Part shown: piece by piece, positions 122 to 49,979 of the stretch | Position numbering within the stretch: position 1 is the first letter of the stretch | Layout of the letters: each line of letters begins with the position of its first letter | Virus record (IMG/VR): IMGVR_UViG_3300005253_000034 | Span: 1-54,311 of that record | Direction: 5' to 3' (one strand) | Length of the DNA stretch: 54,311 nucleotides | Source: a virus | Lineage: Duplodnaviria; Caudoviricetes | Made by a program: the position numbers and the translations under genes | Notes under the pieces: generated by a model | What the model was told of the DNA's origin: nothing | Seen by the model: only the letters and a program-made list of their open reading frames with translations | Database searches by the model: none

Positions 122-410
122 AGACCGTAAACCATTGCTGGAACTGAGGATTTCGGGAATAATCATAAGTTCCAGCATCAGCCCCATTACCCCAAGCCGC
201 ACCTTTTCGACCATCGGTTCGAGGCTTACGTTTCGTATCAGCTATTCGATGTTGTTGTAGATAGTCTTTCTTGAAGGTGTCCCAGTCCTTGCCCATAAAG
301 CCGAGGCCATAGGGCGGATCGGTTACGATGGCGGAGATGAAGTTGGATGGCCAAGACGAGACGACCTCAAGATTACCTCCGCAGAAGATAGTGTTTTTTG
401 ATGGCATCAT
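1..410 (-). CDS. N-terminal part of DNA N6-adenine/N4-cytosine methyltransferase (wraps the origin; joins 52930-54311, about 556 aa in total)
   Basis: Manual translation from ATG at 410 gives MMPSKNTIFCGGNLEVVSSWPSNFISAIVTDPPYGLGFMGKDWD...WAKEMLRITKPGG. It has the catalytic DPPY and is in frame with the ORF-track start at 54300 (=110). Confidence 0.9.
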   Translation of the reverse strand, partial: MMPSKNTIFCGGNLEVVSSWPSNFISAIVTDPPYGLGFMGKDWDTFKKDYLQQHRIADTKRKPRTDGRKGAAWGNGADAGTYDYSRNPQFQQWFTVWAKEMLRITKPGGFLLCFGGTRTYHRLACAIEDAGWEIRD

Positions 411-709
411 TGATTCATCCTTTCAGTTATTAGTTCGTAAAGGAGAGTGTCCGGGAACACGAGTGGGGTTAGCTTGAAAGTTAATCGGTCGTTGCCTCGG
501 CAGATGTAGTATTCGTCGGAATAAAAGTTCATCTCGATGGTGTCTCCAAACTCTACACGAGGATGTTCTGAGACATAGAAGAAGAAATAATTCTTGTCCT
601 CCCCAAGGAGTTTCACGACCACGACACGATGAATGTCGTTGTGGTTATAGCTTTCTATGACGATTCCTAATTGTTCCTTGGTGTCGGGATTCTGCTCTGC
701 TGTATTCAT
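407..709 (-). CDS. hypothetical protein (100 aa)
   Basis: ORF with GAAAGGA RBS and its own promoter; stop overlaps the MTase ATG. Confidence 0.7.
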   Translation of the reverse strand: MNTAEQNPDTKEQLGIVIESYNHNDIHRVVVVKLLGEDKNYFFFYVSEHPRVEFGDTIEMNFYSDEYYICRGNDRLTFKLTPLVFPDTLLYELITERMNQ

Positions 710-727
710 TTGGTTCCTTTCAACAGT

Positions 728-756
728 ATTTTAACATACCCTGCGGGGGAAGTCAA
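728..756 (-). promoter_or_regulatory. sigma70-type promoter TTGACT-N17-TAAAAT
   Basis: Consensus match with extended -10 TGn. Confidence 0.7.
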
Positions 757-982
757 GTAGTTTTTCCATAATTGCTGAAATTACATTGTCGATTTCGGAG
801 AAACCAACACAAGTCGGGGATGGTTGTCTATTATATCGCATATTGCATTCGGTTTCATTATGGAGTAACCTTGAATCTCCGATTTTTTCTTGTCGTTCCG
901 ATGTGCTCGAAACTTGTTGGGAAGCTCTTTGTATTCCAAGTTCAAATCCTCCAATCCCGCTAAATAGCGAAAAATACTTCAT
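731..982 (-). pseudogene. internally deleted C5-cytosine DNA methyltransferase remnant
   Basis: Motif I (LFSGIGGFELG) and CVGFSEID are joined directly to a motif-X-like tail NVISAIMEKLL; the catalytic PC motif is absent. Confidence 0.75.
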
Positions 983-1030
983 CTTTAATCCTTTCAGATG
1001 GTATAGGTGTTATAGTAGGAACCCCTCTTT

Positions 1031-2666: not shown

Positions 2667-2673
2667 ATACTGC

Positions 2674-3332: not shown

Positions 3333-3359
3333 TTTGCGTCCCCTTCATTTAACAAGTGT

Positions 3360-3388
3360 ATTATAGCAAATTTGCATACCGGTGTCAA
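3360..3388 (-). promoter_or_regulatory. promoter TTGACA-N17-TATAAT
   Basis: Perfect consensus. Confidence 0.85.
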
Positions 3389-3428
3389 GGGAAATTTGGG
3401 GGAATTTGAAAATATTTTCGAGATTATT

Positions 3429-3827
3429 TTATCGGATGGAAACAGAACTCGGCATACCTTATCGGACTTTGTTGGCAACGGGATTCTGGACTGCGTGAAT
3501 TTTGGCTCGGAATCCAAAATGAGTTTTAACAGGTGAGGTCTTTCCACTAACATTATCGGACTCGCCCGGGGGCCGATGGGGGGTCTCCCTCCGCAGGTTG
3601 TTGGCGGTGCAGGAGTTAGCGTTTGGACACTTAGTTATTCAGACTTTCCCTACTTGACTGGACACTTAGTTATTCAGACTATATAATCCGAGTCAAGTGG
3701 GAAATTGAGGATCGGCGGAGTCCTGACGTGCCCTGTGCTGGACGAAGTGATTAGGCTAAGTGCTATTGGTGGTTGGGTTTATGACCTTTTTAGTGATCTC
3801 GATGATTAGGTTTATGACCTGCGGAGG
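3429..3827. repeat. non-coding repeat-rich region (TTATCGGACT boxes, 22-bp direct repeat, inverted repeat)
   Basis: TTATCGGACT at 3459 and 3553; TGGACACTTAGTTATTCAGACT at 3624 and 3659; GGTTTATGACCT at 3776 and 3809. Confidence 0.8.
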
Positions 3828-3940
3828 TAAATAGGGGAGGCCCTCATCTTGTTGGCTGGAGGTGGAGCCGATGAGGACCTCGGTGAAGTGAGTTATTTGA
3901 TTTTTCTTATTGGAAGGACTATAACCACGTCCCATTCATT

Positions 3941-7261: not shown

Positions 7262-7293
7262 CTTAAACCCCTTCCTGCGGAGGTAATCTGTTG

Positions 7294-8202
7294 CTAAAGG
7301 ATTGGATAACTTCGGATTTCGATTTTGGGAGATACATATTCCCGGCCTCCCACGAATTGCTCATAAAAAGGCCACACTACTATTTTGGCGGTCATAAATG
7401 CTCTTGCGGGATAACACCCATTGGATTCATAAGTACCTCTCCCAATAGAATGACTATCAAGCCAACAGCCTGGGTTAAGAGCAAACCGATGTTTCCATAG
7501 CAAACCGGTTGGCATTTTCCCTCGAGAAGGTATCCACGCCAAAGGTTGCGGGGGTAGGATACAGAAAGTATGAGTGTGCCCACTAATACAAACATCTGCT
7601 TGGCCCCACTCATCCAGCATAGCCTTTAGTTTCATAGGCTCGGCCCCAGCACTTCGGCCTCCCCCATAACCGTGACGAGCATTGATAATAATGAATGAGC
7701 CGCTTCCGTATCCCCGATTAAATCTAAATCGCAATAATACCTCATCGGACAAATCAGGGATGCCAAGTTTCTCACATAATGCCGTCTGCACGTCCTGATT
7801 AACCCTTTTGCGAATAGTTTTCTCGTGGTTCCCTTCAAGTGCTCCTATAATCAAATGTTTAATTGGGGAAAGGATTTCCGCTGCCCTCTTAATCTCCTGT
7901 GTCGTCATATTGGACAACTTATCCTTTATATCTGCCACTTTCCCGGCCAAAAGCCAATCCGCCACGTCTGAGAAATCGAACCTTTTTATATCCTTTGGAT
8001 TAACGGCATTTAAGACATCCCCGCCAAGCAAAACTCGGACGTGCCTCCCCTTCATTGCATCCCGTTTCACGATTTCGGCCACTTCCTTTTTCAATGCCGA
8101 CTCATTGCAATTATGTTTCCCGATATGAATATCCCATAGTGGGAAAATCTCCACTCTATCCCCACGCCCATCGCATCTAATCTCAACATCTAATAGTTTC
8201 AT
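7294..8202 (-). CDS. calcineurin-like metallophosphoesterase
   Basis: DIHIG, GGD, GNHE, HG and GHTH motifs. Confidence 0.85.
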   Translation of the reverse strand: MKLLDVEIRCDGRGDRVEIFPLWDIHIGKHNCNESALKKEVAEIVKRDAMKGRHVRVLLGGDVLNAVNPKDIKRFDFSDVADWLLAGKVADIKDKLSNMTTQEIKRAAEILSPIKHLIIGALEGNHEKTIRKRVNQDVQTALCEKLGIPDLSDEVLLRFRFNRGYGSGSFIIINARHGYGGGRSAGAEPMKLKAMLDEWGQADVCISGHTHTFCILPPQPLAWIPSRGKMPTGLLWKHRFALNPGCWLDSHSIGRGTYESNGCYPARAFMTAKIVVWPFYEQFVGGREYVSPKIEIRSYPIL

Positions 8203-8786
8203 ACCCCTGTCCTCTTGAGTTTAAGCATTTGATACACAGCCAAGAATATTTGTTCCGAAGCATCAGGAAGCCAAGGAATTATAGTCTCCTCTACGGGATT
8301 ACTGACATCGACTCCCCACACAAAGCCTGGGGGCATTACCGGCATCAGGTCCCGAACCTCCGTCGCCATCATCCGAATATCGGATTCCTTAACCTCCGCA
8401 GAATGGGAAAGGGCAACTCCCAACGCCAACCCAATTACGTCCTGAATCTTGGCCTCAAAAACTTTAACGGGTACAGCGGGTAAATGGGGTGCACCAAAAT
8501 TCCCCACAAAAAGAAGGTTTTTCCAGGGCTTTGCGATGTCCCCAATATAGGTTTCAGCCGCATCGTGTAGCAGCTTTACCATTGGATCACCGGGTAAATC
8601 CTCATTCATTGCCATCAATGCACAATGTTGGGCAACTGAATAAAACTTCCGAGTGTGTCCCGTGTATCTACATTGATACGCCAACGAGCGGGCAATGTCC
8701 TCGATACACACCATCTCGGGTTCAGGATTTAAGAGGTCAAAAGACTTCCCGGTAAAGGTTGCAATATGATTAATGCTCTTGTTCAT
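8199..8786 (-). CDS. HD-domain phosphohydrolase (YfbR/5'-deoxynucleotidase-like)
   Basis: RYTGH, YSVAQH, LLHDAAETYIGDI. Confidence 0.85.
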   Translation of the reverse strand: MNKSINHIATFTGKSFDLLNPEPEMVCIEDIARSLAYQCRYTGHTRKFYSVAQHCALMAMNEDLPGDPMVKLLHDAAETYIGDIAKPWKNLLFVGNFGAPHLPAVPVKVFEAKIQDVIGLALGVALSHSAEVKESDIRMMATEVRDLMPVMPPGFVWGVDVSNPVEETIIPWLPDASEQIFLAVYQMLKLKRTGV

Positions 8787-9048
8787 TTCGCCCCTTTCTT
8801 AAATAATAAATTGTCATGGACGCCCAAATGGTGTGGGCCAACGTAGTAAACGCCCCGCCACCAAAACTCCACCATTGATGAAGGTGGGGGTAATAATGTA
8901 AATTCCAATAACTCCAAGCGGTGAAGAAAATTACCGCCAAGATACTTACTCCTTGTACCTTTTTATCCCGAAACATCTTAATACAATGTAGCAAGATAAA
9001 AAATCCACTACAAAACTCAAATAAACCATTCATATTATCTTGCCACAT
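8770..9048 (-). CDS. PQ-loop/SemiSWEET-like 3-TM membrane protein
   Basis: Three hydrophobic helices with a K..RDK...GVS loop (no canonical PQ). Confidence 0.55.
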   Translation of the reverse strand: MWQDNMNGLFEFCSGFFILLHCIKMFRDKKVQGVSILAVIFFTAWSYWNLHYYPHLHQWWSFGGGAFTTLAHTIWASMTIYYLRKGRNEQEH

Positions 9049-9644
9049 TAGTTCTCCTTTTTGTGCTGTGCCTCTTGGTAAAGGATAATTGCCAGTAGGG
9101 AATATACAGCGTTATCCATTAAAGTATCAATCACGGACTCATCTTTAACCATAAGTTGACCACTTTTTACAAACTCCTCGAGCCGCGACCATTTATCTTG
9201 CAATCGTACCAATACTCCTAAAAACGGTTCAAGATTCAGCCGTTCACAAGCCCGAAGATTTTTGAGTGGATCGCTCCTTCCGGCATAATCGTGATTTTTA
9301 CGAGAGTGCAAATCGGCCATTTGCTTGAGAAGTTTATAAAAGTCAGGATGTCCCCATTGTTTTTTATCCTGGGGAGGCTCTACTGCGGAGGTTTTTTCCT
9401 CATATAATGCAGCCGCCGTCTTAGCTTCATCTTCGGTATCATACCCATAAACCGACCCATCACTTCCATCTGGCTGAACATACCCAGTCACAGCACATGA
9501 GTCCTCCACAATATCCACAATCCATTGGTTGCAATGGAGGCTGGAATAATGTTTTCGTACCATAGTTGTTTTATTTGTCATTTTCGTTCTCCTTCTGTCC
9601 ATGATAATGTTAAAGGTTTCACAGTATATTTTACCCAAGTCCAA
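9048..9644 (-). CDS. DUF1599/nucleotide-modification-associated domain 1 protein (probable start 9581)
   Basis: KNHDYAG...VRLQDKWSRL...ESVIDTLMDNAVY. Confidence 0.75.
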   Translation of the reverse strand: MDLGKIYCETFNIIMDRRRTKMTNKTTMVRKHYSSLHCNQWIVDIVEDSCAVTGYVQPDGSDGSVYGYDTEDEAKTAAALYEEKTSAVEPPQDKKQWGHPDFYKLLKQMADLHSRKNHDYAGRSDPLKNLRACERLNLEPFLGVLVRLQDKWSRLEEFVKSGQLMVKDESVIDTLMDNAVYSLLAIILYQEAQHKKEN

Positions 9645-10531: not shown

Positions 10532-11074
10532 TCAAGCTATGGGGACTGCGGGGACCGTCTCAGGAGCCGCACCGACAACAAGAGTTTCAACCGAAGCCGG
10601 TGTATCTGCATTTGATACATCTTCTGCGGAGGTTTCTGTAGTCGTGTTGATGACTTCTTGGATGTAGCAGTTGGTGAACTCTTTCTTGTACTTGTCGCTG
10701 AAAGCTGTGGAGATCCTAATCCGGATAACTGAACCAATCGATGCCTCAAGAACCTCATAGGCTTCCTTGAGGTCATCCAAAAGAGAATTCCCGGAAAGAA
10801 TCCTTGCATCGCCTTTCATAATCCCATAAGCCGATGACCTGTAAAAATTGACAAGGAATTCCTTACCGTTCAGCTTTTCGTTCTGAACATCCTCGATTCG
10901 GCCCGTAAGTTTATACCACGCAGTCTTAACGTTGTCTTTCTCTTTCTGTCCTGAATCAAATTTGACGAGGGATGCAATATAATCCCCATCCGGCGGCATC
11001 CAATTACTGTAAACCTCCGAGTCCTTAAATGCCTGATTATGCTCGGCCAACAACTGTTCAAAATTTAAGTCCAT
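10532..11074 (-). CDS. putative ssDNA-binding protein (DUF669-like)
   Basis: PPDGDY N-terminal motif, acidic low-complexity tail, follows a Sak4-like ATPase. Confidence 0.55.
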   Translation of the reverse strand: MDLNFEQLLAEHNQAFKDSEVYSNWMPPDGDYIASLVKFDSGQKEKDNVKTAWYKLTGRIEDVQNEKLNGKEFLVNFYRSSAYGIMKGDARILSGNSLLDDLKEAYEVLEASIGSVIRIRISTAFSDKYKKEFTNCYIQEVINTTTETSAEDVSNADTPASVETLVVGAAPETVPAVPIA

Positions 11075-11092: not shown

Positions 11093-12076
11093 TTAGTTTC
11101 GTTGCTTTTTTGCCGCCACGATGGCGGTATTATAGTTCTTCTTGAACACATCCCACGCCTTGATGTGGGGAATTTCAAACTTACGAATCATCCCGGGTGC
11201 AGCCCGACCCTTACCTTCTCGCTCGGCGGTGGTATAGGAATCAAGGTAATATTTTGAGATCATCTCTGTACCACAAGGAACCGTAATCTTCTGTCCCCCA
11301 GGCAGTATTCTTTGCTCTTTTTTCTCGATTTCCTTGTTGATGCAGTAAATCGTGAGCTTAAAATCACTACTGCGAACAATCTTGGCGGCAAATGAGGGGA
11401 ACGCTGCGTCACGAATAACGGTTCTCTCCTTATGTGTTACCGGATTTGTCTCGGTCTTGGTAATCATATGCCCCACACAAGACCATACAAAACCAGCCTC
11501 CTCTAATTCCCGCAGTCTTGAAAAACACCGCTCCCGAATCATCGACCATCCATGTCCTTGTGCTCCAAAATCCGTAATATCCGGGACGCCCTTTTCGACT
11601 TGAAGTCTATTAGTAATCATACCAAGCCACTCATCCGTAGTGTCAATGGATACCCGATGGACAATATGCTTCCCTTTCTTACCCTCATCAATGAGCTTCT
11701 GCGTAACCTCCATATACCGCTCATAGCTCCCGATAGGAACCCGCATCGCCCTTGGTCCAATAATACTCTCTGCCGATTTATCGAAATCCAGAATCAGGTT
11801 GTCGGGAATACTGGAATCAAATGTGGTTTTACCCTCACCACTCGGCCCGACAATATATAGGTTCAAGTCCTCCGCAGGTTTAGGATCATAACCAGCCACG
11901 ACTCCGAGCTTGGCCCAGTCAGCGGGGATAACCGGCACAGTATTAGGAGTCGCAGCCAGCACAACATTCCCTTGGGGAACTTGTGCTTTGAATGCGGCCC
12001 CTTGAATTGGAGAAGTCTGGCCTTGTGGTTGAACTGCCTCTCGAATGGATTTTCTTTGTGCATCACTAACTGTCAT
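11093..12076 (-). CDS. AAA_24/Sak4-like ATPase (recombination)
   Basis: GPSGEGKTT, ILDFD, SIDT, GH motifs. Confidence 0.75.
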   Translation of the reverse strand: MTVSDAQRKSIREAVQPQGQTSPIQGAAFKAQVPQGNVVLAATPNTVPVIPADWAKLGVVAGYDPKPAEDLNLYIVGPSGEGKTTFDSSIPDNLILDFDKSAESIIGPRAMRVPIGSYERYMEVTQKLIDEGKKGKHIVHRVSIDTTDEWLGMITNRLQVEKGVPDITDFGAQGHGWSMIRERCFSRLRELEEAGFVWSCVGHMITKTETNPVTHKERTVIRDAAFPSFAAKIVRSSDFKLTIYCINKEIEKKEQRILPGGQKITVPCGTEMISKYYLDSYTTAEREGKGRAAPGMIRKFEIPHIKAWDVFKKNYNTAIVAAKKQRN

Positions 12077-12853: not shown

Positions 12854-13904
12854 TTTTTTCTTCTGCTATCCGATATTTTGTATCGAACAATTCCGGCCAC
12901 CGCGACATCGGAGCCGAACATAGGTCAAGGTAGATACACGGCGAGTCATATAGGAAGCAATGAAACCTCGAGGGGTCTCGATAATAAAAAGCAGGATTGT
13001 TGCCTCGCTTACCAAGGTCGTACATTTTACACAATTCAGATGAAAATCCCATAGAAAACAAGGGTTCGTTGAACACTATGGCTCGGGATTCAATGGATTT
13101 TCTACCATCGTTTTTCTCGGAATAATCCGCATACCACTCCTTAACTCTGCGGAGGTAGGCTTCTTCAACGGAGCAATTCCAGAGCTTTGAATTTTTATCA
13201 TCCTTGCCACAGAGCTTAATCCCCGGCTTCATAATCCCATCCAGAATAAACCCTTTGACGTGCTCCAAAGCCCATTTTGCATCCTGACCCTCTTTCTTGA
13301 CCATATAATCCCCAGCCAAGATTCGATACATCCGAGCTTGGGGCGACCAAGGAAACCCAGCAAAGATGACATCCAGTGTTTTCATTCCTGTACTTTTGTG
13401 GTCTCGAATCCAAATGCCTCCGCAGTCTTTGCGGGTATCTTCAACGAGTTTATCAATGGTTCCCTCTAATACCATTCCAGCTAAAGGGCCACTCAGAATT
13501 GTCATTGAGTGGTTGACTTCGGTTCTGAGTGTCCTGAGATAGCTTGGAGTCGGGTAGCGTTCCCAGAATAGGTGGGCCATAGCCTCGGCTTTGTTGTAGA
13601 GCATCGTGAGTAGGTTTGCCAACCGGAATATTTGGCCGTCCAAGTCCTCACCTTTCTCGACCCGAGCCATCAATTCCAGTTGCATCTTACTAACCCAAGG
13701 CTTGACTAAATCCTGTTTGTCCTGCCCAAGTGCTTGAAACTTGTGATAAATCTTCCCAAGTGATGCTCCTTCTTTCACCTTAATGCCCCGTAGCTCCACG
13801 CCCCATCGTTCCTTAAAAAACCAACACCTCTCACAACCGTGAGCACAGCTAATGCTCGACTGATGGCACACAAATGGTTTCATCTGAATTTCTTCAATTT
13901 TCAT
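12834..13904 (-). CDS. PD-(D/E)XK (Cas4/RecB-like) exonuclease
   Basis: GTIDKL...IRDHKS, QARMY, N- and C-terminal Cys. Confidence 0.8.
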   Translation of the reverse strand: MKIEEIQMKPFVCHQSSISCAHGCERCWFFKERWGVELRGIKVKEGASLGKIYHKFQALGQDKQDLVKPWVSKMQLELMARVEKGEDLDGQIFRLANLLTMLYNKAEAMAHLFWERYPTPSYLRTLRTEVNHSMTILSGPLAGMVLEGTIDKLVEDTRKDCGGIWIRDHKSTGMKTLDVIFAGFPWSPQARMYRILAGDYMVKKEGQDAKWALEHVKGFILDGIMKPGIKLCGKDDKNSKLWNCSVEEAYLRRVKEWYADYSEKNDGRKSIESRAIVFNEPLFSMGFSSELCKMYDLGKRGNNPAFYYRDPSRFHCFLYDSPCIYLDLCSAPMSRWPELFDTKYRIAEEKNEEETN

Positions 13905-37767: not shown

Positions 37768-38784
37768 TTAAACATAGGAACCAATGAAACCATACAGTTC
37801 CAATCCAAAAGCCCCATCAGTTTCATCAATACGAATTGGATTGTTCCGGCCAATCTTAATGGCGTGGGGCAAAGTAACAACAGTATTTCCCATTACACCA
37901 TTCGTATTCAGAATCCCGGTATTGTACTTTATGGTTTTCTTGAGAGTATGAGGATCAACCGGGAATCCAACTCCGTCTATCCAAGCCGTACTGGAAGATG
38001 TCCCATCGTTACTGGCAACCAAATCAGCGTGAGCAGTTCCAGTTCCTTCATCTATATTCCAAGCAGCCGACAATCCCGTTTCGGTTCCAATGAATTTACT
38101 TCCAGCCCCACCAGCCCAGAGAGTATCCATTTCTGCGGAGGTAAGAATTTGGCTATACAAACCGAAAACGCTAATATCGAATGTCTTAGACGTTCCACCA
38201 GTAATCACCAAATTAACTGCACCGCCAATGTTGCCTACAGCCGAAATATCCCCAGCAGTAGCAACAGAAACATTATCGACATACATAGTAAGGCCATCGG
38301 TTTCTCCCGCTTCAATATTGATAACAACCCAATGCAACTTATTATCGTTGATAACATTTCGACTTGTAATCGTTACCGGTGCAGCCGATCCATCGTCGAC
38401 AGTACAAAATAATTTACCGTTTGCATCTATCCCGACAAGCCAACCATCTCCGCCATTGTCCTTATCTATCATAGTTGACAAGGAAATAGCATCGGCGGCA
38501 GCTTTAATTCCAAATACAATGGCAAAGTCGCCTGCCCCAGGCTCAAGGGCGGAATTGTCTGTGACTGTAAAAGTGTCTGTATTTCCATTAAATCTCAGAG
38601 AAGCCCTCCGCAGGAAGCTAAAACCATCTGCGGTTCCACCTCCTGTGAGGATGAATCCCGTGAGAAACCAACTCTGATTTGCACCGGGGGAGTCTATAAG
38701 ATGAGTGAAAGCTGCTGAACCGGCATTGAGATGGGAATATGGAAATCCATCGTCAGGCCGCATCGGGCGAGTTTCATTTGGCAT
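37768..38784 (-). CDS. LamG/concanavalin-A-like domain virion protein (start MPNETR)
   Basis: [28 protein letters not shown] motifs; AAGGA RBS at the internal ATG. Confidence 0.7.
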
Positions 38785-38854
38785 TTTAGTATCCTTAAAG
38801 AAAAAACTGTGCCTCCCCATATCCTCGGCGAGGCACACAATTAGATATTCAAAC

Positions 38855-41503
38855 TTACGCAGCAACGATTGTTGCACCAGATACGAGAGGCTCATAACGG
38901 ATATACCATTCAATAGAATCGTCTGCATCTCCATTAGCATCAAGATTCATTATGATACTACCATCATCGGTTACAAAATCAAATCCCATATCTCCTATTA
39001 CGCCGTTGGCAGTTAAGACTAACGCTGCTCCAAACGTAGCACCAGGGGTAAGAGTGCTCCCTACTGCTGCGGCATTAATATCGACTGTTCCTGTAACATC
39101 AACAGCATTTCCAGGAGTAGTAGGTTTAGTAGTTACTTTACAGTTGATTGCAACAGCTTTGATTACATTAGCAACAACAGCAACAATACTTGTAACTTTA
39201 ACCGGGCCACCGCTAACGGTAAACAGAATTGTTTCTCCTGAAGCAGCAGTGAGGTCGGTTTTAGTTTTGGTTGCCGATTTTGCTATTAACGGGTCAATAA
39301 CAGAAGTATCGGCCAGAATAGCGTCAAGGTCAGTATGAGCCAAATCAAGCGAGGCTTTCGCACTATCGTCTTGGGCGGCTCCACCGTCGCCTGAAAATGC
39401 ACCTGACTTATCTGAAATAGCTTGGAGTGAATCAGTGGTACACTTATAATCAGTTGCATCTTTCGATTTAGATAAGATATGAGCTACTAAGGAACCAGAA
39501 ACACAGTGTGGTTCTAAATCACCATCAGCCACTACACCAGTGTCTGTACCTGTAAGAGTATCAAGTTGGTCTGCCGCTAAAGCTGTGGTCACACCTGTAC
39601 CAGCCGCTAAAGCAACCGCTATTGCTTCCAGCGAATCGGTAGAACACTGATAGGTACTCGTATTTGCTGTGGCGGACAGAATATGAGCCAATAAAGTCCC
39701 ATCAAGGCAGTGTGCTGTCAAATCACCATCAGCCGCAACGGTAGTATCCACACCTGCTAAAGTGTCAAGTTGTATTCCGGTTAAAACAGTCGAGCCAGTT
39801 CTGAGAAGGTCAGAAATAGCCTCCAGCGAATCAGTTGAATTATCAAAAGATGTTATATTCGCCGGATTTCCTTTAGCCATTAGAAAAGCCAATACACTAT
39901 CGTTTACTACGGAATCTGGGTACAAATTGCCACCACCATCCGCAGCCGAAGCTAAGAAGTGAAGTAAATCAGCTTCAATCGCAGTGGTAACACCGGTTCC
40001 AGCCACTATATAATCTCGAATAGCCTCCAGCGAATCAGTTGTGTTGTCAAAGGTATAGGAACCATCTTTGTGGAGAATATCGTGGAGTGATTTTTGAACA
40101 GGAGGTTCATCAACAGCGGCAGAAGTATTAGCTTCCACCAGAGTAAGAAGGTCTCGAATAGCTTCTAAGGAATCAGTAGTATTGTCAAAGGTGTAACTAC
40201 CGTCCTTATGTAAGATGTCGTGGAGTGACTTTGCTGTAGGGGGTTCATCAACAGCAGCACTTACATTATCAGTAATCGCCGTTACCTTATCCGAAATAGC
40301 CTCTAAGGAGTCAGTAGTATTATCATAGGTATTTGCACCATCTAATTTCGACAAAATATCCTGTAGAGAGTTACCAGTTGGGGTATCCGGTACGGCATCG
40401 GTTACATCTGTCGGAGAGCTAATTCCACCAACAGCATCCGCTATGGCTTCAAGACTGTCAGTTGTGTTGTTATAAGTGTAGCTACCGTCTTTGTGTAGCA
40501 TATCGTGCAGTGAATTTGCGGTCGGAGGTTGTGAAACGGCTGTATTAAGAGCAGCCTGAACTTCTCCACCGCCAATTATAGCAGCAGCAGTACCGTCAGC
40601 GGTAACACCGTAGGTTTTGAACCAACTCATTTTTGCCGCCACAATCATACTATCGACTGCAAGTCCTGTGGATTCAATATAGGCATTTCGGATGATCCCC
40701 GTACAATCAGCGTGTACCTCAATGCCGGGTTCGTTGTCCTTGACTTTACAGGTAAGGTCGTCAATTAAGAGGTCGGTACAGGCTGCGGTATCGTTGACGA
40801 TTGCAGCCGTACTGTAGTTACCGATGAATCGGCATTTTTCAACGATACAGTTGTCGGATGCACCGTTGAAGTAAACAGCGGCGACCGCTTCTGCGGAGGC
40901 AACTTTTGTACGTCCCAGACAACCCTTAATTTTGGTGTTGTCACAACCAGACTTTACTTCTATCCCGGCAATGAATTCATCAGCAGCCGCATCACCCTCC
41001 GCAAAATCACAATCTTCGAGTTTTGTACCGGTTACACCCGTTTCAATATCGACACCGATAAGGACGGCTGTGATGCTGGGTACAAATCGTAGGTTAATGA
41101 GATGAATATTGTTGGCTCCAATATCGACACTGGAATTGGCGTGGCCAAAGTTTACAGCGGCTTTGTTATCTCCCTCACCAATACCTATACAGGTAATGTC
41201 GGATACGTCGAAGTCAACTTGAGCATTGACTATTGTATCGACGTGACCGGGGGCTGCGAGGATAACACTTCTTTCCCCCGCCGTACACAAACCGATTGCG
41301 TAGTCGATTGTGGCGAGGGGTTTTTCAAAAGAATGCCCGTGTTCGGTATCATCGACATCAGAGGCATTTGTGTGTCCTGAATCAACGAACAGGACTTGGG
41401 CTTCAGATAAAAGTCGTGGGCCGAGGTTGGAAAGATAAATTATTGCTTTCCACCCGTATTTTGCTACGAGGTCTGAAACTCTAAATGGATTTGTTGCTGG
41501 CAT
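38855..41503 (-). CDS. 882-aa virion protein: beta-helix-like N-terminal domain plus TDSLEAI repeats
   Basis: [14 protein letters not shown] (pectin-lyase-like start); about 8 repeats ending (T/S)TDSL(E/Q)AI; directly after the capsid gene. Confidence 0.65.
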
Positions 41504-43832: not shown

Positions 43833-44714
43833 CTATTTCATCTCTCGGGCAGTCTTAACCGCCCTCTGAAGATACCTGGCAACAAGATTTTTCTCGTCAC
43901 CATCTTCATTTGAAGGAATTCGCTTAATTGGTTCGTTGGCTTGGATTTCGGATGAAAGGCCTTCACTCGGCCCCAGGCCCAAAACGATGGGGTGCTGGTT
44001 GAGTTTCTTTGGGATACCAAGTTTAGTCAACTGCGACCGTACCCTCTGTACGCTTGCTGCTACCATCTCGGCTCCAAACGGTTTGCCATCTTGAATCTTC
44101 CTAAGAACATCCTCAGCTACCATATTCCTAACTTCGGCGAAAGTATCGTCTTTGTCCTCGCCTACTATCATTTTACCAAATATCTCATCTTTGTCAACCG
44201 CTTTGTCCGATATTTCTCGAATTTCTTTTCTGGCATCATTGACGTGCCGCTGTTGCGAGAAATCCAAAATAGCCCGGACCTCCGCAGGAGTGGCGTCAAA
44301 TTGCTTCTGGAATTCAGCACTAAAATCAGTCTCTGTGGCTTTTTTCTGCGGAGGGTCATTTTCTTTTAGAGATTGCATAAACTCAGCAGGCTCAATTTCG
44401 AGTAATCCGGCCAATTCCCGAACATTGGATTCGGATGGAGTATCTTCTTTGGAAATTGATTTCACGAGGGTTTCTATCCGAATCCCCCGCTCTGCGGTTT
44501 TTGTAGCCTCTGCAGATTCCCGGAATCTATTGTCGGCTCCAGTTGCTTTCTCGGCTCTTATTTTTAGCTCGTCAATAGTTAAGGCAACATCTTGGCCGTC
44601 CACCTTAATTGTGTGAGTTTCGACCTTCTTTTCTTCTTGCTTCTCCTCTTGCTTTTCTTCCTGCTTCTGCTCTTCTTGTTTCTCTTCTTGTTTTTCTTCT
44701 TCGGGCATTTTCAT
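43833..44714 (-). CDS. scaffolding protein (putative)
   Basis: EEKQ repeats, IKVDG...TIDEL; lies between portal and capsid. Confidence 0.7.
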   Translation of the reverse strand: MKMPEEEKQEEKQEEQKQEEKQEEKQEEKKVETHTIKVDGQDVALTIDELKIRAEKATGADNRFRESAEATKTAERGIRIETLVKSISKEDTPSESNVRELAGLLEIEPAEFMQSLKENDPPQKKATETDFSAEFQKQFDATPAEVRAILDFSQQRHVNDARKEIREISDKAVDKDEIFGKMIVGEDKDDTFAEVRNMVAEDVLRKIQDGKPFGAEMVAASVQRVRSQLTKLGIPKKLNQHPIVLGLGPSEGLSSEIQANEPIKRIPSNEDGDEKNLVARYLQRAVKTAREMK

Positions 44715-44721
44715 TCCTTTC

Positions 44722-44799
44722 TTAATTAAAGTTTAAGTGTGCAAATTCACCGTGTTCTCTTATAGTAAATTGGCCTTGTGTAAGCGGTATCTGCTTCAT
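44722..44799 (-). pseudogene. collapsed HNH-AP2 endonuclease remnant (25 aa)
   Basis: MKQIPLTQGQFTI fused to REHGEFAHLNFN, resembling the typical N- and C-termini of that family. Confidence 0.7.
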
Positions 44800-46817
44800 T
44801 GGACAGGCTCCCCCCCCTGCGGAGGTTGTTCTAATTCCATTGCTGCACTGTCTTCCATAGTCTCCATACCTTCGGGCATTATACCCAAACCTATATTATG
44901 TTCGCTGTAGTGCTCTACGAACTTCTCCCGGACAGCCGGACTTGCAGCATAGAATTCAGGGCGAGCCATAAATGCGTTGAGTACACTTTGATGAATTAGG
45001 TGCATGTCCCTTTCACTGACAATAACCCCCCCTGGTTTTTCCCCGTCTCCAAAGAGAGCAATATTTTCAAGTATAGCCCTTCGACGATTCTGATAGGCAA
45101 CTTCGTTCCCCACCGGAGAGTTTAATCCTCTTTTACGAATTTCAAAACCATATTCATCCAGAGTAATTATTCCCTTCTCGAGGGCTTCTTTTAATTCCAT
45201 TTTCTGCTGCTCTTTGGAAATTGGAACCTCAGAAGCCACGTTGATGTTGACTTCATCGGGGCTGGGGATTGCGTTTTTGGCAAGACTAATTTCCCCGGTT
45301 TCTATGTCAAAAGCGATTCCGGCTAAGGAGTCGTCAAGAGTACTGATGCTTACAACTTTCTCGGGAGGCCAAATATCCTGAATAATTCCTAACATAGAAC
45401 GATAGATTCCCGATACTGCTTCGGCCACATTTTTCGCTGTCGGAGTTAGTGGAATTCCACTTGTTTCATAAAGGAATCCTAAACCAGAAGCCGAATCGAC
45501 ACGGCCAGGAGCACCGCCTTTCAGCATCTCTGTTGGCTGATTAGCCAGCTTATCCATCAAGCCACCAGCGACCATAGCTCCCTCTATATTGGATTTTGTT
45601 AGCTTCGCAGGCATTATACTGAAAGGTTTCAGGTCCGGGGTTGAGTAATCTGGTTCATAAGTTATCCTCTTGACGCCATCTCGGCCTCTAAGAGCCTCTG
45701 GAGGTGTTCCCAAGGATGCAGGCCACATCTGTAGCCCATATAACTCGAAATCGGTTATGTTCTGGAAAAGACTACTGAGACTATACTCTGCTTCCGTGTT
45801 CAGGGGGATTAGTTGGTCAACAAAGGAACGGCCATAAAATCCACCAACGGTAACATCCCGTGCAATTTTTACGGGCATATAATATTTATTTTGAGAATGG
45901 TCGTGGCGATATAATTGATTCAGCTTACTATAGGAGCCGGCAAAAATAAGATATTCTGCCAAGTATCCATCAGACGTTTCCGTCCAGACCTCGACAAGGA
46001 GAGTGACATCCATTTGGGATTTATCTGTTTTAGGGTATCGTCCTTTCCACTGAGTCTCGACTTGGCTCTGTCCACTCCTGATATAAAAACCCCCCCCGGT
46101 ATGGGTAAGAGAAGCTATCCCTTGAAATTTAGAGGTCACGTCCGAAGGTAAGTCCCCAAATGGAACCTTCAAATCATCCAGCCCCTTGTAAACTTTATTG
46201 CCTTTGCCAGGGGTTATCGAGAGTCCTTTTATGTAGTCTGTAGGTACATATCGTACCCGAATCAGCCCCCGCACATCAGATGGGACAGCGACATCTATTG
46301 GAATCGGAATTAACTCCCAAGGATTAATGACCTCAATCCCAATACTATCCTCCCCCTCTACCCACAATCCAAATCCGATTGTCCCAAAATGTAGTAGAGG
46401 CGGGAAAGCATTGAGGGCTAATTTAGAAACTTTTTCCTGCGGGAATGCTGAATCCAAGACTACCTGTGCCGTACTTGCTTTTCGTAAACCATCAAGACTC
46501 GTACCCCTCCGAGACACTGTGGGGGCAAGATTTATAGACAATAATCTACCAAGTTGAGCTTGGTATTTCGATACGATGTCCTCATATCTGAACTTTAATA
46601 CTCCTGATTCATCCAGATATGACGCATTAAGAGTTCCGCCTCCATAATTTATGTTACTGAAATTTCGGATACCCCTCATATAGTAGTGGTTTATCCACCA
46701 GTTGATTGAAATTGGATTCATCCTTGACTTGCCGGTAGAGACAAGATATTGGAACATCTGCTCAACTTGCTGTTTGTTGGCAGATGTATTTGGAGGCAAC
46801 TGAAATCTATAGCCCAT
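44796..46817 (-). CDS. portal protein (putative)
   Basis: 673 aa after the terminase; GFYGRS..DQLIPLN, GRVDSASGL. Confidence 0.75.
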   Translation of the reverse strand: MGYRFQLPPNTSANKQQVEQMFQYLVSTGKSRMNPISINWWINHYYMRGIRNFSNINYGGGTLNASYLDESGVLKFRYEDIVSKYQAQLGRLLSINLAPTVSRRGTSLDGLRKASTAQVVLDSAFPQEKVSKLALNAFPPLLHFGTIGFGLWVEGEDSIGIEVINPWELIPIPIDVAVPSDVRGLIRVRYVPTDYIKGLSITPGKGNKVYKGLDDLKVPFGDLPSDVTSKFQGIASLTHTGGGFYIRSGQSQVETQWKGRYPKTDKSQMDVTLLVEVWTETSDGYLAEYLIFAGSYSKLNQLYRHDHSQNKYYMPVKIARDVTVGGFYGRSFVDQLIPLNTEAEYSLSSLFQNITDFELYGLQMWPASLGTPPEALRGRDGVKRITYEPDYSTPDLKPFSIMPAKLTKSNIEGAMVAGGLMDKLANQPTEMLKGGAPGRVDSASGLGFLYETSGIPLTPTAKNVAEAVSGIYRSMLGIIQDIWPPEKVVSISTLDDSLAGIAFDIETGEISLAKNAIPSPDEVNINVASEVPISKEQQKMELKEALEKGIITLDEYGFEIRKRGLNSPVGNEVAYQNRRRAILENIALFGDGEKPGGVIVSERDMHLIHQSVLNAFMARPEFYAASPAVREKFVEHYSEHNIGLGIMPEGMETMEDSAAMELEQPPQGGEPVQ

Positions 46818-47095
46818 TATCTGACACCTATTGTCATTTTATAATCAACATTTTCAGACTCTTTTTCTTTCTTCTTATCCACAATACCGGGGAGGACTTT
46901 CTTCGGGGGTTTATTTGATGCCACCAATGCCCTCAAGGATTCTGGTTTATCATCTTTCCCAGCCACTACAATGAGCAGTTGCTTATTTGTCTCAGTCAGT
47001 TGATTAATGACTTTAAGCAATATCAGTAAATAGGCAAGAATTCCAAGTAATCCCACCGTAATAACAATGCAAACAAGTGGTATCCAAATATTCAT
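46817..47095 (-). CDS. small membrane protein
   Basis: N-terminal TM; GAAAGGA RBS. Confidence 0.65.
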   Translation of the reverse strand: MNIWIPLVCIVITVGLLGILAYLLILLKVINQLTETNKQLLIVVAGKDDKPESLRALVASNKPPKKVLPGIVDKKKEKESENVDYKMTIGVR

Positions 47096-47122
47096 TTAAG
47101 CCTTCCTTTCGTACTATCATTT

Positions 47123-47150
47123 ATTATACCAAAAAGTCACTCCTTGTCAA
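47123..47150 (-). promoter_or_regulatory. promoter TTGACA-N16-TATAAT for the head operon
   Basis: Perfect hexamers. Confidence 0.8.
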
Positions 47151-47228
47151 CCCAATATTTCCTAAAAATGCCATATATCCTCCGCAGGATATAGGCCACA
47201 AATAGGAAAGTTATTAAATATCTAAACA

Positions 47229-49076
47229 TTATCCCACAATATTCCTTTGACCCCGAACCACACGCCGGTTATTCGGGTCTATAGCTGATTTACGAGCATT
47301 TTTACTCAAGACATCAAGCATCTCGTCGGTTATCTCGGATGGGGATACCCCCGAGAGTAAAGGTGTCCCCTTAACAAGAGGCAGGTTTCGGCGAATACGC
47401 TCCAAAAGGCTTGGTTTCCCTTTTTCCTTCGTAAATATCCCACCTCTATTTTTCACAACGTATTGGGACATCGAGAGGGTATCAACAGCATCGTCGTGGG
47501 GCAATAGGGCTAAGTCTGGGGTATAGTCCTCGGTCTGTTGATATAGCTGGTCAAAAGGCCATTTACCTGCAAGATGGGCTGGATATTTTATTCTACCAGG
47601 ACGGAATCGCCACTCCATCCCGGATATTCGTTGACTCTTGGAGACTCTGGCCGGATATGTAATCGGGAAAACTCTTGCCCTCCAAGGCTGTGAGATTTTC
47701 TGCTCCATTTCCTCAATATATTCCTTGACAGCCTCCGCAAAACTCATCTGGATGCTCACGGCCTCAATTCCGAGGACCCGGGGCCGCCACGCTAATCCGT
47801 ATTCATAGATTAATCGCAACAATGTCGCATCCTTGGCTCGGCCAAGCCACATATCCAGAATCCATAAGGTATTCAAGGTGTCAAAGCCAAGGATCATGAT
47901 ACAGGAATAATCATTGTATTGAGAAAGACCACACCCATAATCGAATAGCAAAATCCGATACATCGGAAGTACCAATTCTCGGAAGGGTTTCTCAAAATCC
48001 TTATAGACCCTGCGACCCGGCTCCATATATCGTTCCGACCACTTTATGTTTCCGATATGAGCCAGTGGATTTTTCCAGTCAAATTCCCCCTCAACACTAT
48101 ACTCATTCTTACGAGGGTCAATTACGAGAATACGGTCTTGAGCAGAGATTGGTTCGTTGCAGTATTCACTGGCAAATGCGGATGGGCCAATTTCTTCTCG
48201 CCGAGCCTCAAGAATTTCCTGTGACCATTTCTCCGGCCATAAAACATAGACTTTCTTGGGGTCCTCCTTATCGTATTCGATTGCCTTCAAGACCTTACGG
48301 TTCCAAAAGTCAAATCGAGAGTCGTCACTTGTTGTGGCGTGATAGAGAAAAGACCTCCTATTAATCAAAGTCCCTATCCAATAAATAGACGACCCGGATT
48401 CAAGCATCGGGATTATCTGCCGAAACAGAATCATCTCGAATTTCTCAACTACAACTTGTGCAGCGGCTTGAGAGTCTGAATCCGGGTCATTTTCAGGATC
48501 ATCAAGTATAAATAATCTTGGTCGCCCCCCTCGCTTCTTCCCCATTACACTGAGACCTTTTATAACCGCCCCATTCATCAAAGACAGTTGGTGATGATTC
48601 CAAATCTTCTGGCCTCTTGGGGGCTTCACCTCACCAAAGTCTTGAATTATTAATTCGTTCTCAACAAACTGCTGTATCAATTTGTCAAACCGTTCCTCAA
48701 CTTGTCTATCAGTAGCCAATCCTAAAGTTATTTCGTAATGAGGACGAGTTAGAGCCAATAGCATTGGGGCCTCAAGACCTATCACGGTTGACTTAGCCGA
48801 ACCTCGGGGAGCCGCACTTGCATTTCGGGCGTGTTCCCCCAAATCAAGAATCATCTCGTAGTGAAAATCTGGGGATTCCTCAAAACCGTTTTTATAGAAC
48901 AACTTCCCCGCACCAGCGAGGTAGCACCTGCGGAAGAAATCCCAAGCCACTACCAAATCAAAAGGAGTTGATTGATTGTGCAAGACAGCCAACCTCGCCT
49001 GTTTCTGAGCATCAAGCGATAGCGAATCATAATCTCTCGGCAGAGGCCACAGAGGATAAGGACGCTGAATCCACAT
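47229..49076 (-). CDS. terL: terminase large subunit
   Basis: APRGSAKST, ILDDPE, FDYG...DYS, GIE, HDDAVD. Confidence 0.9.
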   Translation of the reverse strand: MWIQRPYPLWPLPRDYDSLSLDAQKQARLAVLHNQSTPFDLVVAWDFFRRCYLAGAGKLFYKNGFEESPDFHYEMILDLGEHARNASAAPRGSAKSTVIGLEAPMLLALTRPHYEITLGLATDRQVEERFDKLIQQFVENELIIQDFGEVKPPRGQKIWNHHQLSLMNGAVIKGLSVMGKKRGGRPRLFILDDPENDPDSDSQAAAQVVVEKFEMILFRQIIPMLESGSSIYWIGTLINRRSFLYHATTSDDSRFDFWNRKVLKAIEYDKEDPKKVYVLWPEKWSQEILEARREEIGPSAFASEYCNEPISAQDRILVIDPRKNEYSVEGEFDWKNPLAHIGNIKWSERYMEPGRRVYKDFEKPFRELVLPMYRILLFDYGCGLSQYNDYSCIMILGFDTLNTLWILDMWLGRAKDATLLRLIYEYGLAWRPRVLGIEAVSIQMSFAEAVKEYIEEMEQKISQPWRARVFPITYPARVSKSQRISGMEWRFRPGRIKYPAHLAGKWPFDQLYQQTEDYTPDLALLPHDDAVDTLSMSQYVVKNRGGIFTKEKGKPSLLERIRRNLPLVKGTPLLSGVSPSEITDEMLDVLSKNARKSAIDPNNRRVVRGQRNIVG

Positions 49077-49979
49077 TTACTTTTTTAACTCTTCAAGGGC
49101 TGGGAGAGTACGAATCACATCGAAGAAAGCTATCGTCGTGGCGATTCCAGCACACCAAATATCGTTTCCAATGTTGCTACCCATCACGACTTTAAGGCTT
49201 GGCCAAATCCCCTCAAGATACCCGGGTTGTCTAAGCAGAGTAAAGACCATCTCGGGAATCACGGCTCTATCCTCGAAATCCCAAGTGGTCGTCGATGGTG
49301 TCGTCATTGGCTGAGAACACAAGGCAACGATATGAAAAGCAACCCCCGCCGCCACAAAACCAGCGTCCATAATATGATTCCGCAGAGCCGTGAATTCAAT
49401 GTCCTCCGCAGGGGGTTTGGGGCGTGTAATCTCAAGTGCCTGGGATGGAAATGTTTGACCACTACCAGTCACCTGCGGGGGGTGGGGAGATTCAAATTCG
49501 TGAATTAGGTTGTCGATTTTAATCTTATCTTTTGGGGTGGGACATTTATGAGCTATAAGTTCTGAGTTGAATTCAAAACGAACACCACAATCAACACAAT
49601 GACTTTTAACTTCCTGTGGAAAAGATTCAAACTCTTCGGGGGATTCCTCGGCTAAATTAGAATCTGTTTTAGAATTAATCCCCTGCGGAGGAGATTCCAG
49701 GGAAGAGTTTTCGGTCACAGGTTGGGGGTTTGGTTTTGATACAGGGATTATCGGGACTTTCGGCACTGTGTGAGTCACCGCTACTGGCTCCTCCGGGTAC
49801 TGGTCTTGAAGTCTCTTCTCCGTCTGGTGGTTTAGTTCCTCCAGAGTCGCCATCTCGTCCCGAGTTAGTGGTTGGTCGGGGACATCCCTCAGAACTTGAG
49901 GAGGTGTCTTGGGTGTCTCGGCTCTCTTGCCTATCGCATTCTCGATTAGGTTCGGTTGGGCTTTCTTCTTTTCTGTCAT
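49077..49979 (-). CDS. Pro-rich hypothetical protein (start MTEKKK)
   Basis: AAGGA RBS; abuts terL. Confidence 0.6.
   Translation of the reverse strand: MTEKKKAQPNLIENAIGKRAETPKTPPQVLRDVPDQPLTRDEMATLEELNHQTEKRLQDQYPEEPVAVTHTVPKVPIIPVSKPNPQPVTENSSLESPPQGINSKTDSNLAEESPEEFESFPQEVKSHCVDCGVRFEFNSELIAHKCPTPKDKIKIDNLIHEFESPHPPQVTGSGQTFPSQALEITRPKPPAEDIEFTALRNHIMDAGFVAAGVAFHIVALCSQPMTTPSTTTWDFEDRAVIPEMVFTLLRQPGYLEGIWPSLKVVMGSNIGNDIWCAGIATTIAFFDVIRTLPALEELKK

Follow-up and report, generated by a model that had tools for sequence, protein, structure and literature searches.

Why would a tailed phage carry one nine-base word, letter for letter, at short intervals along both strands of its genome? The question is raised by the virus record IMGVR_UViG_3300005253_000034 (Duplodnaviria; Caudoviricetes), whose entire assembly (one record, 54,311 bases) is the window analyzed here. 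The word, CCTCCGCAG (reverse complement CTGCGGAGG), occurs in 35 exact copies, 17 in plus and 18 in minus orientation (plus denotes CCTCCGCAG on the top strand, minus denotes CTGCGGAGG on the top strand), or about one copy per 1.5 kb overall with a gap of about 3 kb per strand. As set out below, strong purifying and positive selection acts on the word as a strand-specific signal throughout a phage family, and we consider it probable (about 0.8) that this signal is polar and is read by a machine that tracks along or unwinds the DNA.

Several null models were used to assess the over-representation. Across 100 dinucleotide-preserving shuffles of the window the word appeared 0.20 times on average and never more than once, so that none of the 100 reached 35 and the excess is approximately 175-fold. 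A preliminary description of this DNA, made from its letters alone, had placed all 35 copies correctly (17 plus, 18 minus) and was right about the over-representation itself, but its figure of roughly 80-fold was too low. Markov models of orders 1-4 expected 0.24-1.44 copies. For the coding nulls a set of 57 open reading frames (ORFs; 47,115 coding bases) was used. These hold 30 of the copies, compared with 0.83 (maximum 5, n = 300) when synonymous codons were shuffled so that the proteins were preserved, and with 0.24 (maximum 3, n = 300) when codon order was shuffled within genes. The best unrelated 9-mer in the window reached 9 copies, and the highest count for any 9-mer over 30 shuffles was 10. 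The preliminary description had made its case depend on two points, persistence of the enrichment under a codon-preserving null and the absence of other 9-mers with similar counts, and both held. Copies with one mismatch numbered 26, compared with about 6.4 expected from base composition, and the four examples given earlier (19149, 40996, 47732 and 50501) are real. Because exact copies outnumber one-mismatch copies, these counts argue for selection on the exact word.

The 35 copies are listed here with the amino acids read across each coding copy; "close relatives" are the near-complete phage genomes G001-G003, and PolA-UDG is a family A DNA polymerase fused to a UDG-like domain.

376-384, plus, in the methylase ORF 3-410, FCGG
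3588-3596, plus, intergenic 10-mer with G at +1, left member of a convergent pair at an iteron-like region
3819-3827, minus, intergenic 10-mer, right member of the pair with 3588 (231 bp)
7275-7283, minus, intergenic 10-mer
8393-8401, plus, in ORF 8199-8786 (dNMP phosphatase-like), SAEV
9383-9391, minus, in ORF 9048-9644, TSAV
10624-10632, minus, in ORF 10532-11074 (SSB-like), TSAE
11869-11877, plus, in the Sak4-like gene, PAED
13147-13155, minus, in the exonuclease gene, YLRR
13417-13425, plus, in the exonuclease gene, DCGG
14829-14837, plus, in ORF 14559-14900, LRR
15420-15428, minus, intergenic 10-mer
18510-18518, plus, in the PolA-UDG gene, LRR; a gain, with an arginine codon versus T/I/K in three relatives
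18770-18778, minus, in the PolA-UDG gene, ASAD; kept in the close relatives
21524-21532, minus, in ORF 20553-23696, TSAV
22010-22018, plus, in ORF 20553-23696, SAEG
23293-23301, minus, in ORF 20553-23696, NLRS
27465-27473, plus, in ORF 27337-29973, SAEV; kept in the close relatives
28603-28611, minus, in ORF 27337-29973, PPQ
28911-28919, plus, in ORF 27337-29973, TAEA
29409-29417, minus, in ORF 27337-29973, TSAV; kept in the close relatives
31878-31886, plus, in ORF 29983-33423, AAEG; convergent pair with 31992 (114 bp)
31992-32000, minus, in ORF 29983-33423, TSAG; convergent pair with 31878
33189-33197, plus, in ORF 29983-33423, PAEG
36928-36936, plus, in ORF 36821-37210, SAED; kept in the close relatives
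37177-37185, minus, in ORF 36821-37210, TSAE
38133-38141, minus, in ORF 37768-38943, YLRR; DNA unalignable to the close relatives
38605-38613, plus, in ORF 37768-38943, PAEG; DNA unalignable to the close relatives
40891-40899, minus, in ORF 38855-41503, ASAE; DNA unalignable to the close relatives
44279-44287, plus, in ORF 43833-44714, PAEV; convergent pair with 44346 (67 bp); kept in the close relatives
44346-44354, minus, in ORF 43833-44714, PPQ; partner of 44279, differently placed in G002 and G003
44817-44825, minus, in ORF 44796-46817, PPQ
47179-47187, plus, intergenic 10-mer upstream of ORF 46817-47095
49403-49411, plus, in ORF 49077-50006, PCGG; kept in the close relatives
49683-49691, minus, in ORF 49675-50340, SSAG; kept in the close relatives

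All six frame and orientation classes are occupied by coding copies, and together with the protein-preserving shuffles this use of every frame rules out an amino-acid motif or a codon-usage artefact, as had been proposed on the basis of the varied protein readings (SAE/PAE/TAE, TSA, LRR/LRS, PPQ and CGG, to which AAE, ASA and SSA can be added). Phase 1 holds 19 of the 30 coding copies, read as [S/P/T/A]-A-E (xCT-GCG-GAG-Gxx) or [T/A/S]-S-A (xCC-TCC-GCA-Gxx); the word therefore sits where common residues tolerate it. The five intergenic copies of 35 correspond to about the non-coding share of the genome (DNA outside the 57-ORF set is about 13%), so there is no intergenic enrichment. All five carry G at +1, compared with 8 of 30 coding copies (Fisher p = 0.004), and the form preferred where coding does not constrain it is thus the 10-mer CCTCCGCAGG, which differs from its own reverse complement at two positions; the 10-mer form of the five intergenic copies and this two-position difference had both been noted in the preliminary description. 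A longer dispersed repeat or mobile element was ruled out, as the copies are alike only in the word and two to three flanking positions. With 30 of 35 copies in genes and no wider similarity, they do not resemble REP/REPIN/MITE-type elements either, which are longer, imperfect and intergenic palindromes. A search for second dispersed words in the window, G012 and G017 returned tandem coding repeats as the only other frequent words.

Conservation of the word was followed through relatives of the phage. IMG/VR searches with the terminase and polymerase yielded 27 loci; the word was present in 26 of them, and in at least 19 no other 9-mer exceeded it in number. More distant family members, and a second phage lineage described below, were reached through pattern scans for close convergent pairs. 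Counting the word in related phage contigs, as had been suggested beforehand, showed that it outnumbers every other 9-mer in each of the 12 family genomes or contigs rebuilt, at 0.57-1.31 copies/kb and across a GC range of 0.41-0.55, while the reversed control word occurred 0-3 times per family record. Copy numbers were 40, 36 and 36 in the close relatives G001, G002 and G003, and 43 (G011), 31 (G012), 57 (G013), 30 (G015), 34 (G017), 15 (G019) and 38 (G020) elsewhere in the family, in which core-gene identity to the window is 56-88% for the terminase, 48-80% for the polymerase and near 30% for some genes.

The window and its close relatives are 73-75% identical over aligned DNA. At this distance the motif 9-mer was unchanged in 14/24 (G001), 15/23 (G002) and 19/26 (G003) aligned cases (58-73%), compared with 8.0%, 8.8% and 11.6% of all aligned 9-mers, respectively; for the more distant G013 it was kept in 10/15 cases against a background of 4.4%. 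Individual copies turn over: no more than 7 of the 35 recur in every one of the close relatives, and three are clear gains, aligned in all three and present in the window alone. Another seven lie in DNA without alignment to any of the three, and lineage-specific genes therefore gain the word at equal density. Flanking preferences are also maintained across lineages: +1 is a purine (C in 0-3%; 11% in G020), C is all but absent at +2, and about half of the copies have A at -1. In G015 they are extended to GG at -2/-1 (77% and 90%) and G at +1 (80%), giving an effective word GGCCTCCGCAGG. The core is thus invariant and the flanks co-vary with phage lineage. Use of the quasi-palindromic 10-mer as a site for a dimer is doubtful because the flanks are asymmetric.

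The arrangement of copies along the genomes is strand-specific. Orientation counts are balanced in every genome (e.g., 17/18, 20/20, 19/17, 16/20 and 22/21), and gaps between same-orientation copies were more regular than random in 12 of 16 strand-by-genome tests (p < 0.05), with a coefficient of variation (CV) of 0.45-0.74 in those 12 against a null of about 0.92. In contrast, gaps in the merged series are irregular (CV 0.66-1.01). Same-orientation copies are depleted about two-fold within 1 kb of each other, and orientations alternate more often than expected by chance in the window (26 runs vs 18.5 expected, p = 0.007) and likewise in most relatives. Orientation therefore matters to whatever reads the word, which weighs against a lattice of double-strand binding sites.

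A second rule governs neighboring copies of opposite orientation. The classes "plus then minus" and "minus then plus" are each invariant under reverse complementation, so that a difference between them is real. Among adjacent copies less than 100 bp apart in 11 genomes, 21 were plus then minus, none was minus then plus and 6 had the same orientation; beyond 2 kb the corresponding numbers were 7, 33 and 42, with the reservation that some pairs are homologous between genomes and the counts are partly non-independent. In six distant genomes the median gap was 443 bp for plus then minus (n = 77) and 1331 bp for minus then plus (n = 73; Mann-Whitney p = 3e-9). In the 500 bp that follow a plus copy on its right, minus copies were 2.2-fold enriched (55 observed vs 25 expected), and in the 250 bp to its left they were depleted (5 vs 12.5). 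In a collection-wide scan the convergent pattern with a gap of 41-71 led to loci with at least four copies in 15 of 44 new cases, compared with 1 of 49 for the divergent pattern. Members of a pair are alike in the word alone, without further complementarity, and are thus not hairpin elements. Convergent pairs with a spacing of 23-28 bp were seen at G001:17353-17384, G003:23972-24003, G012:12284-12315, G019:17652-17683, G020:11750-11783 and G013:32214-32250; those of G001 and G003 align with each other, and the window has no equivalent. The pair rule may be a by-product of events in the RNA: transcription of either strand of a convergent pair would give an mRNA with a CCUCC arm ahead of a Shine-Dalgarno-like GGAGG arm, and the former could mask the latter, an internal site, as the transcript emerges.

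These features bear directly on the binding lattice raised in the preliminary description, considered here as an orientation-blind lattice for a DNA-binding protein that could serve condensation, partition, protection or stoperator-like repression across the genome. The number of dispersed copies (about 35-57 per genome) would suit stoperators, of which Cluster A mycobacteriophages have tens, as short asymmetric sites across genomes of about 50 kb; the 10-mer is nearly palindromic, and intergenic copies all take that form. However, regular spacing is confined to the single orientations and disappears when they are merged, orientation pairs show a strong asymmetry, intergenic DNA holds no excess of copies and the flanks are asymmetric as well, with C avoided at +1/+2 and A or G present at -1/-2. 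Stoperators, moreover, are intergenic and oriented with transcription, whereas the copies here are mostly coding and half of them run against transcription. We regard such a lattice as very unlikely.

A bacterial source of the word was sought in 1,160 distinct genomes (401 Gammaproteobacteria, 301 Desulfobacterota, 301 Phycisphaerae, 151 Sulfurovaceae and 10 others), a bacteria-only sample of well under 1% of species. None of the 1,160 was denser than about one copy per 23 kb; the densest had one per 23-25 kb, compared with one per 0.8-1.7 kb in the phages. The word is neither E. coli Chi nor HIP1, both of which have zero occurrences in the window, nor any DNA uptake sequence (DUS) or uptake signal sequence (USS) known to us, in agreement with the earlier reading. 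Uptake sequences, such as the DUS of Neisseria and the USS of Pasteurellaceae, nevertheless provide the closest resemblance in layout: they consist of a core of 9-10 bases with flank preferences, occur about once per kb in both orientations and evenly, occupy tolerant reading frames and form inverted pairs. A host word of this type, or another genome-wide host word copied into phages by recombination or drive, could also account for its presence in unrelated phages. Against this, uptake sequences saturate the bacterial genome and phages only secondarily, whereas here saturation was seen in phage contigs and in none of the 1,160 sampled genomes; the negative scan included 301 genomes of the class Phycisphaerae, to which the metagenome-assembled genome (MAG) containing a contig of the second lineage belongs, and a lytic-looking phage would have no obvious benefit or drive. 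We therefore consider this origin highly improbable.

Several bacterial records stand out. Among the densest genomes, G1067 carries 83 copies vs 41 of the reversed control word, and G1332 (Phycisphaerae, 4.3 Mb) carries 174, of which 156 lie on one strand and 18 on the other, probably as a tandem or dispersed repeat. The Sulfurovum MAG G824 (1.7 Mb) has 37 copies vs 2 of the reversed word over many contigs; 22 inspected copies were without the phage flank signature (C at +1 in 5/22), and 150 other genomes of its family had no excess of the word. The contig L354 (rpoD-dnaG, 5 copies) was rejected as a host, as all five copies are intergenic palindromes and the closest genomes, G629 and G785 (RpoD 87% and 83% identical), carry one copy each. 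When an inverted-repeat pattern was searched in genome and metagenome contigs, most of the matches listed were long palindromes of bacteria in which the word happens to occur, without relation to its use in the phages. Nostocales carry a dispersed hairpin repeat with the word in its stem (AAAGCCTGCCTCCGCAGGC...; L067, L099, L080 and the Calothrix record G010, which has 55 copies vs 5 of the control, mostly as pairs spaced 25-27 bp), judged to be likewise unrelated. The cellular-looking metagenome contigs L370 and L432 each have two long word-containing palindromes about 6.5 kb apart; those of L370 flank a stretch with an alpha/beta hydrolase gene, with genes for a Type ISP-like restriction-modification enzyme and a YhcG nuclease just beyond.

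The word is also used by an unrelated siphovirus lineage. L208, L202 and L078 represent one siphovirus structural module (lambda E-type capsid, HK97 gp10-like protein, tail terminator and tape measure) with no similarity to the window family. L461 belongs to this lineage by its terminase, portal and capsid, the capsid sharing about 45% identity with its L208 counterpart, and L271 is a siphovirus tail module. These contigs carry 0.7-0.9 copies/kb, with flanks that match the family (A at -1/-2; G or A at +2 in 22 of 23 copies), and their four adjacent pairs closer than 100 bp are all plus then minus, two of the four being homologous. At 1098-6333 of L461, four same-strand copies follow one another almost periodically, with gaps of 1726, 1749 and 1752 bp. 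Close relatives of these contigs can nearly lack the word: L339, with a capsid 70% identical to that of L208, has two copies over 20 kb, and no more than one was counted in any of 16 relatives by terminase, of which L518 shows 68% identity. The window family thus carries the trait throughout, the siphovirus lineage only in patches. L078 lies in the Sedimentisphaerales MAG G006, which has 28 copies vs 16 of the control; among 401 Planctomycetota genomes, the capsid of this lineage was found only in G006 and, weakly, in G357. No reader gene common to both lineages was found in about 30 kb of second-lineage fragments. Their sole link is a 12-residue N-terminal peptide (MDLxFEQLLAEH), which is present in the SSB-like protein of the family (window 10532-11074), in a small ORF upstream of the L461 terminase (127-390) and at about 1184-1234 of the window. 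It may be a common partner-binding tag and was not accepted as evidence for a reader.

Any reader encoded by the family would be sought among its genes, nearly all long ORFs of which lie on the minus strand in the window. The genes that could be named are:

47229-49076, large terminase
17127-19754, PolA-UDG
10532-11074, SSB-like protein (C-terminus of the G002 homologue DDDIPF)
Sak4-like annealase gene, containing copy 11869
exonuclease gene, containing copies 13147 and 13417
ERCC4-domain nuclease
AAA_25/DnaB-like helicase
two endonuclease VII-like genes and one HNH gene
trypsin-like peptidase
BNR/sortilin-repeat protein, 1146 aa
radical-SAM protein with a DUF2284 neighbor
8199-8786, dNMP phosphatase-like protein
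1-410 and 52930-54311, N6/N4 methylase, its domain divided between the contig ends

The nucleic-acid genes that belong to the family core are the polymerase, exonuclease, Sak4-like, SSB-like and ERCC4-type nuclease genes. An exact terminal overlap of 121 bp joins both contig ends (123 bp in G001), from which it follows that the genome is circular, permuted or short-repeat-ended and has about 54,190 bp of unique sequence. In a genome of this kind both orientations of the word would be useful.

On this basis we propose that the word, in its best form CCTCCGCAGG with A at -1, a purine at +1 and no C at +1/+2, would act in cis as a polar DNA signal, whose reader travels along the DNA or unwinds it and recognizes the word on a single strand or from a single direction. 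Both orientations would be needed, and each would be maintained as its own evenly spaced series. Selection on the word, its strand-specific layout and family-wide conservation, and its absence at phage-like density from the sampled bacteria are direct observations, while the reader and its biochemical effect are what we infer. In the form of this proposal that we favor, though only tentatively, the word is a Chi-like attenuator or recombination signal for a host or phage enzyme. It would stop or switch a helicase-nuclease entering at DNA ends or breaks, so that degradation would go no further than the next copy met in the right orientation, whereupon the end would be passed to recombination; the Sak4-like annealase, SSB-like protein, exonuclease and ERCC4-type nuclease of the family core would fit such a role. 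The dependence on orientation expected of a Chi-like site is indicated indirectly, by per-strand regularity and the asymmetric pair classes.

Phages rich in Chi are the nearest functional analogue. According to PMC12315714, LLS carries 23 Chi sites (1 per 1.86 kb), P1 50 (1 per 1.9 kb) and MD8 32, Chi being the top octamer; relatives with a Rec module and a RecBCD inhibitor are mostly without Chi, and in LLS (20:3) and MD8 (32:0) the sites are strongly one-oriented and clustered towards one end. The resemblance lies in a G-rich, orientation-dependent word that is the top k-mer, sits inside genes above expectation and is lacking in relatives, a patchiness that recurs in the siphovirus contigs and their relatives. 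The first 50 kb of P1 served as our own control: its 27 Chi sites are clustered (CV 1.27 and 0.99) and follow no pair rule (7 vs 6).

Several points weigh against a Chi-like signal, although it was the leading idea to survive from the preliminary description. The Chi of Chi-rich phages is that of a known host and common in the host too, whereas no word-rich host was found among the 1,160 genomes. The layout is unlike that of real Chi-rich phages, being balanced, genome-wide and even per strand instead of one-oriented and end-clustered, or clustered as in the P1 half-genome. Lambdoid phages rich in Chi are without a Rec module, whereas the Sak4-like annealase, exonuclease and SSB-like protein are core genes here. 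Chi of these phages has 8 bases, and the 9-10 specified bases of the present word make it longer than any Chi known to us (5-8 bases). An identical core over 41-55% GC, together with the extension in G015, would fit a reader inherited with the phage at least equally well, and a Chi model by itself does not predict the convergent-pair rule.

As to where the polar signal's reader would be encoded, family-wide identity over this GC range, the co-varying flanks and the negative host scan favor a phage-encoded one, while patchy occurrence in an unrelated lineage favors a host reader or a mobile module. It is possible, if somewhat doubtful, that the word is a phage-borne "self" mark read on single strands as a start, nick or stop signal. 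The reader would then be a component of replication-recombination, e.g., the ERCC4-type nuclease or an unrecognized primase, and only DNA with two interleaved per-strand series would be processed or copied, with word-free host DNA being ignored or destroyed. The siphoviruses could have obtained the word with the same module, or through mimicry that allows survival in co-infection.

The ERCC4-domain nuclease is among the best conserved core proteins (53-89% identity), which would also suit a different role for the word, as the site at which a phage-encoded, site-specific nickase such as this one cuts a single strand in the service of recombination, replication restart, packaging or ejection. 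Nick-associated words are the nearest analogue for conservation of a 9-mer inside genes throughout a family: according to PMC11780129, 13 nicks of Rembedalsseter lie at WACTRTGAC, and 61 related Pseudomonas phages with little nucleotide similarity are enriched in it. The motifs of tf/Rembedalsseter and T5-like phages thus share with the present word a length of 9 bases, location in coding sequence and family-wide occurrence despite low nucleotide similarity. Family-wide conservation of the word, flanks that co-vary with phage lineage, absence from the sampled bacteria and an even spacing per strand, as fits a strand-specific act, all agree with nicking. However, the known nick words are confined to one strand and unevenly spread, with 9-13 copies in one part of the genome, whereas 30-57 copies are distributed here genome-wide and equally on both strands. 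Opposite-strand copies come as close as 23-37 bp, and nicking of both would bring about near double-strand breaks. Occurrence in the siphoviruses would further require transfer of the nickase gene, and no common gene was seen in the roughly 30 kb of second-lineage sequence. Nicking, one of the two main rivals of the Chi-like form, is rather unlikely in our view.

Around the helicase, priming of replication has to be weighed. A 600-bp non-coding stretch (3333-3940) upstream of the helicase-side genes contains three iteron-like repeats of the TTATCGGAC type and a 20-bp direct repeat (GGACACTTAGTTATTCAGAC, twice), and the convergent 10-mer pair 3588/3819, 231 bp apart, brackets the iteron-like region. 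From its sequence the stretch looks like an origin or control region that uses repeats other than the word; a related word, GTCCGATAA, is also frequent in relatives. A replisome component could start complementary-strand synthesis solely at the nine-base word, as RepB' does at ssiA/ssiB of the IncQ plasmid RSF1010; the length of the fragments made on either template strand would then follow from the series of copies on that strand. In PMC8567376, ssiA and ssiB are inverted copies on complementary strands near iterons, used with the RepA helicase and an iteron-binding initiator, and constitute a precedent for long, specific initiation sites; the window likewise combines an AAA_25/DnaB-like helicase with an iteron-like region bracketed by a convergent pair. 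An even per-strand spacing of about 1.7-3 kb suits priming sites, a Pfam scan of 40 window proteins brought up no primase family, and movement of replication modules between phages could explain the patchy siphovirus cases. Conversely, the core genes include no candidate primase, as judged from the 40 proteins scanned against Pfam and 14 against PHROGs, with about 15 small ORFs outside these scans, and the helicase has no tblastn match in G013, G015 and G020, all of which bear the word. Equal orientations would require forks in both directions through every region, or pure strand displacement. The ssi sites are described as 40-nt hairpins occurring once per strand and used by the RepB' primase, whereas the word has 9-10 bases, lacks their hairpin-plus-flank structure and occurs 15-30 times per strand. 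Priming is the other main rival of the Chi-like form, and we think it improbable to the same degree as nicking. The 1047-aa core protein adjoining the polymerase gene (20553-23696) was considered as a primase and rejected; it belongs to no Pfam family and resembles phage "large polyvalent protein" clusters instead (feature score 0.98), a lead from feature similarity only.

The remaining proposal of the preliminary description is that the word is the target of phage modification enzymes, which here would mean a methylase or radical-SAM-dependent hypermodification. In its favor, the genome encodes an N6/N4 methylase, a radical-SAM protein with DUF2284, a dNMP phosphatase-like protein and the UDG-PolA fusion. 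The methylase has no tblastn match in G002, G011, G015 and G020, all of which have the word at full density, and of these only G002 has a match to the radical-SAM gene; since neither gene is core, this reading is unlikely to the point of being scarcely credible. The methylase and radical-SAM genes lie, furthermore, in a 5-kb arm (49692-54311 and 1-375) that is the sole part of the window without an exact copy. This arm, which makes up 9.2% of the genome and carries accessory genes (methylase, DUF2284, radical SAM and endonuclease VII), holds 6 of the 26 one-mismatch copies and could be recently acquired DNA that is still acquiring the word.

Other properties of the window can be stated briefly. 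Shine-Dalgarno-type ribosome-binding sites precede 31 of 54 genes, and neither known RNA families nor tRNA genes were found in the window. A megablast search of a phage collection with 24 kb of the window as query returned no named relative. The sequence is present in four public runs from two studies, labelled marine sediment metagenome, one of which is possibly its source. GATC is depleted about six-fold across the window (34 observed vs 203 expected from base composition), which suggests avoidance of a GATC-specific host enzyme, and five to six tandem coding repeats with a period of 132 bp are located at 32271-32931 within the BNR/sortilin-repeat protein.

No description of per-strand series with a convergent-pair rule was found in the literature searched, where the Chi tables of PMC12315714 may hold orientation data, and a search for the word itself, covering titles and the beginnings of abstracts for part of the results, returned primer-type listings alone. 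The two interleaved per-strand series and the convergent-pair rule are thus features without precedent in the literature searched. If the polar signal is of the Chi type, the word would be the recognition sequence of an unstudied helicase-nuclease, and phages could be said to saturate both strands evenly with such a sequence, which would bear on how they survive DNA breaks, restriction and the acquisition of CRISPR spacers. If its reader is instead encoded by the phages, the word would represent sequence-based self-recognition for replication or nuclease protection, of a kind undescribed in tailed phages. Either way, it provides a simple metagenome marker for these marine-sediment phages.

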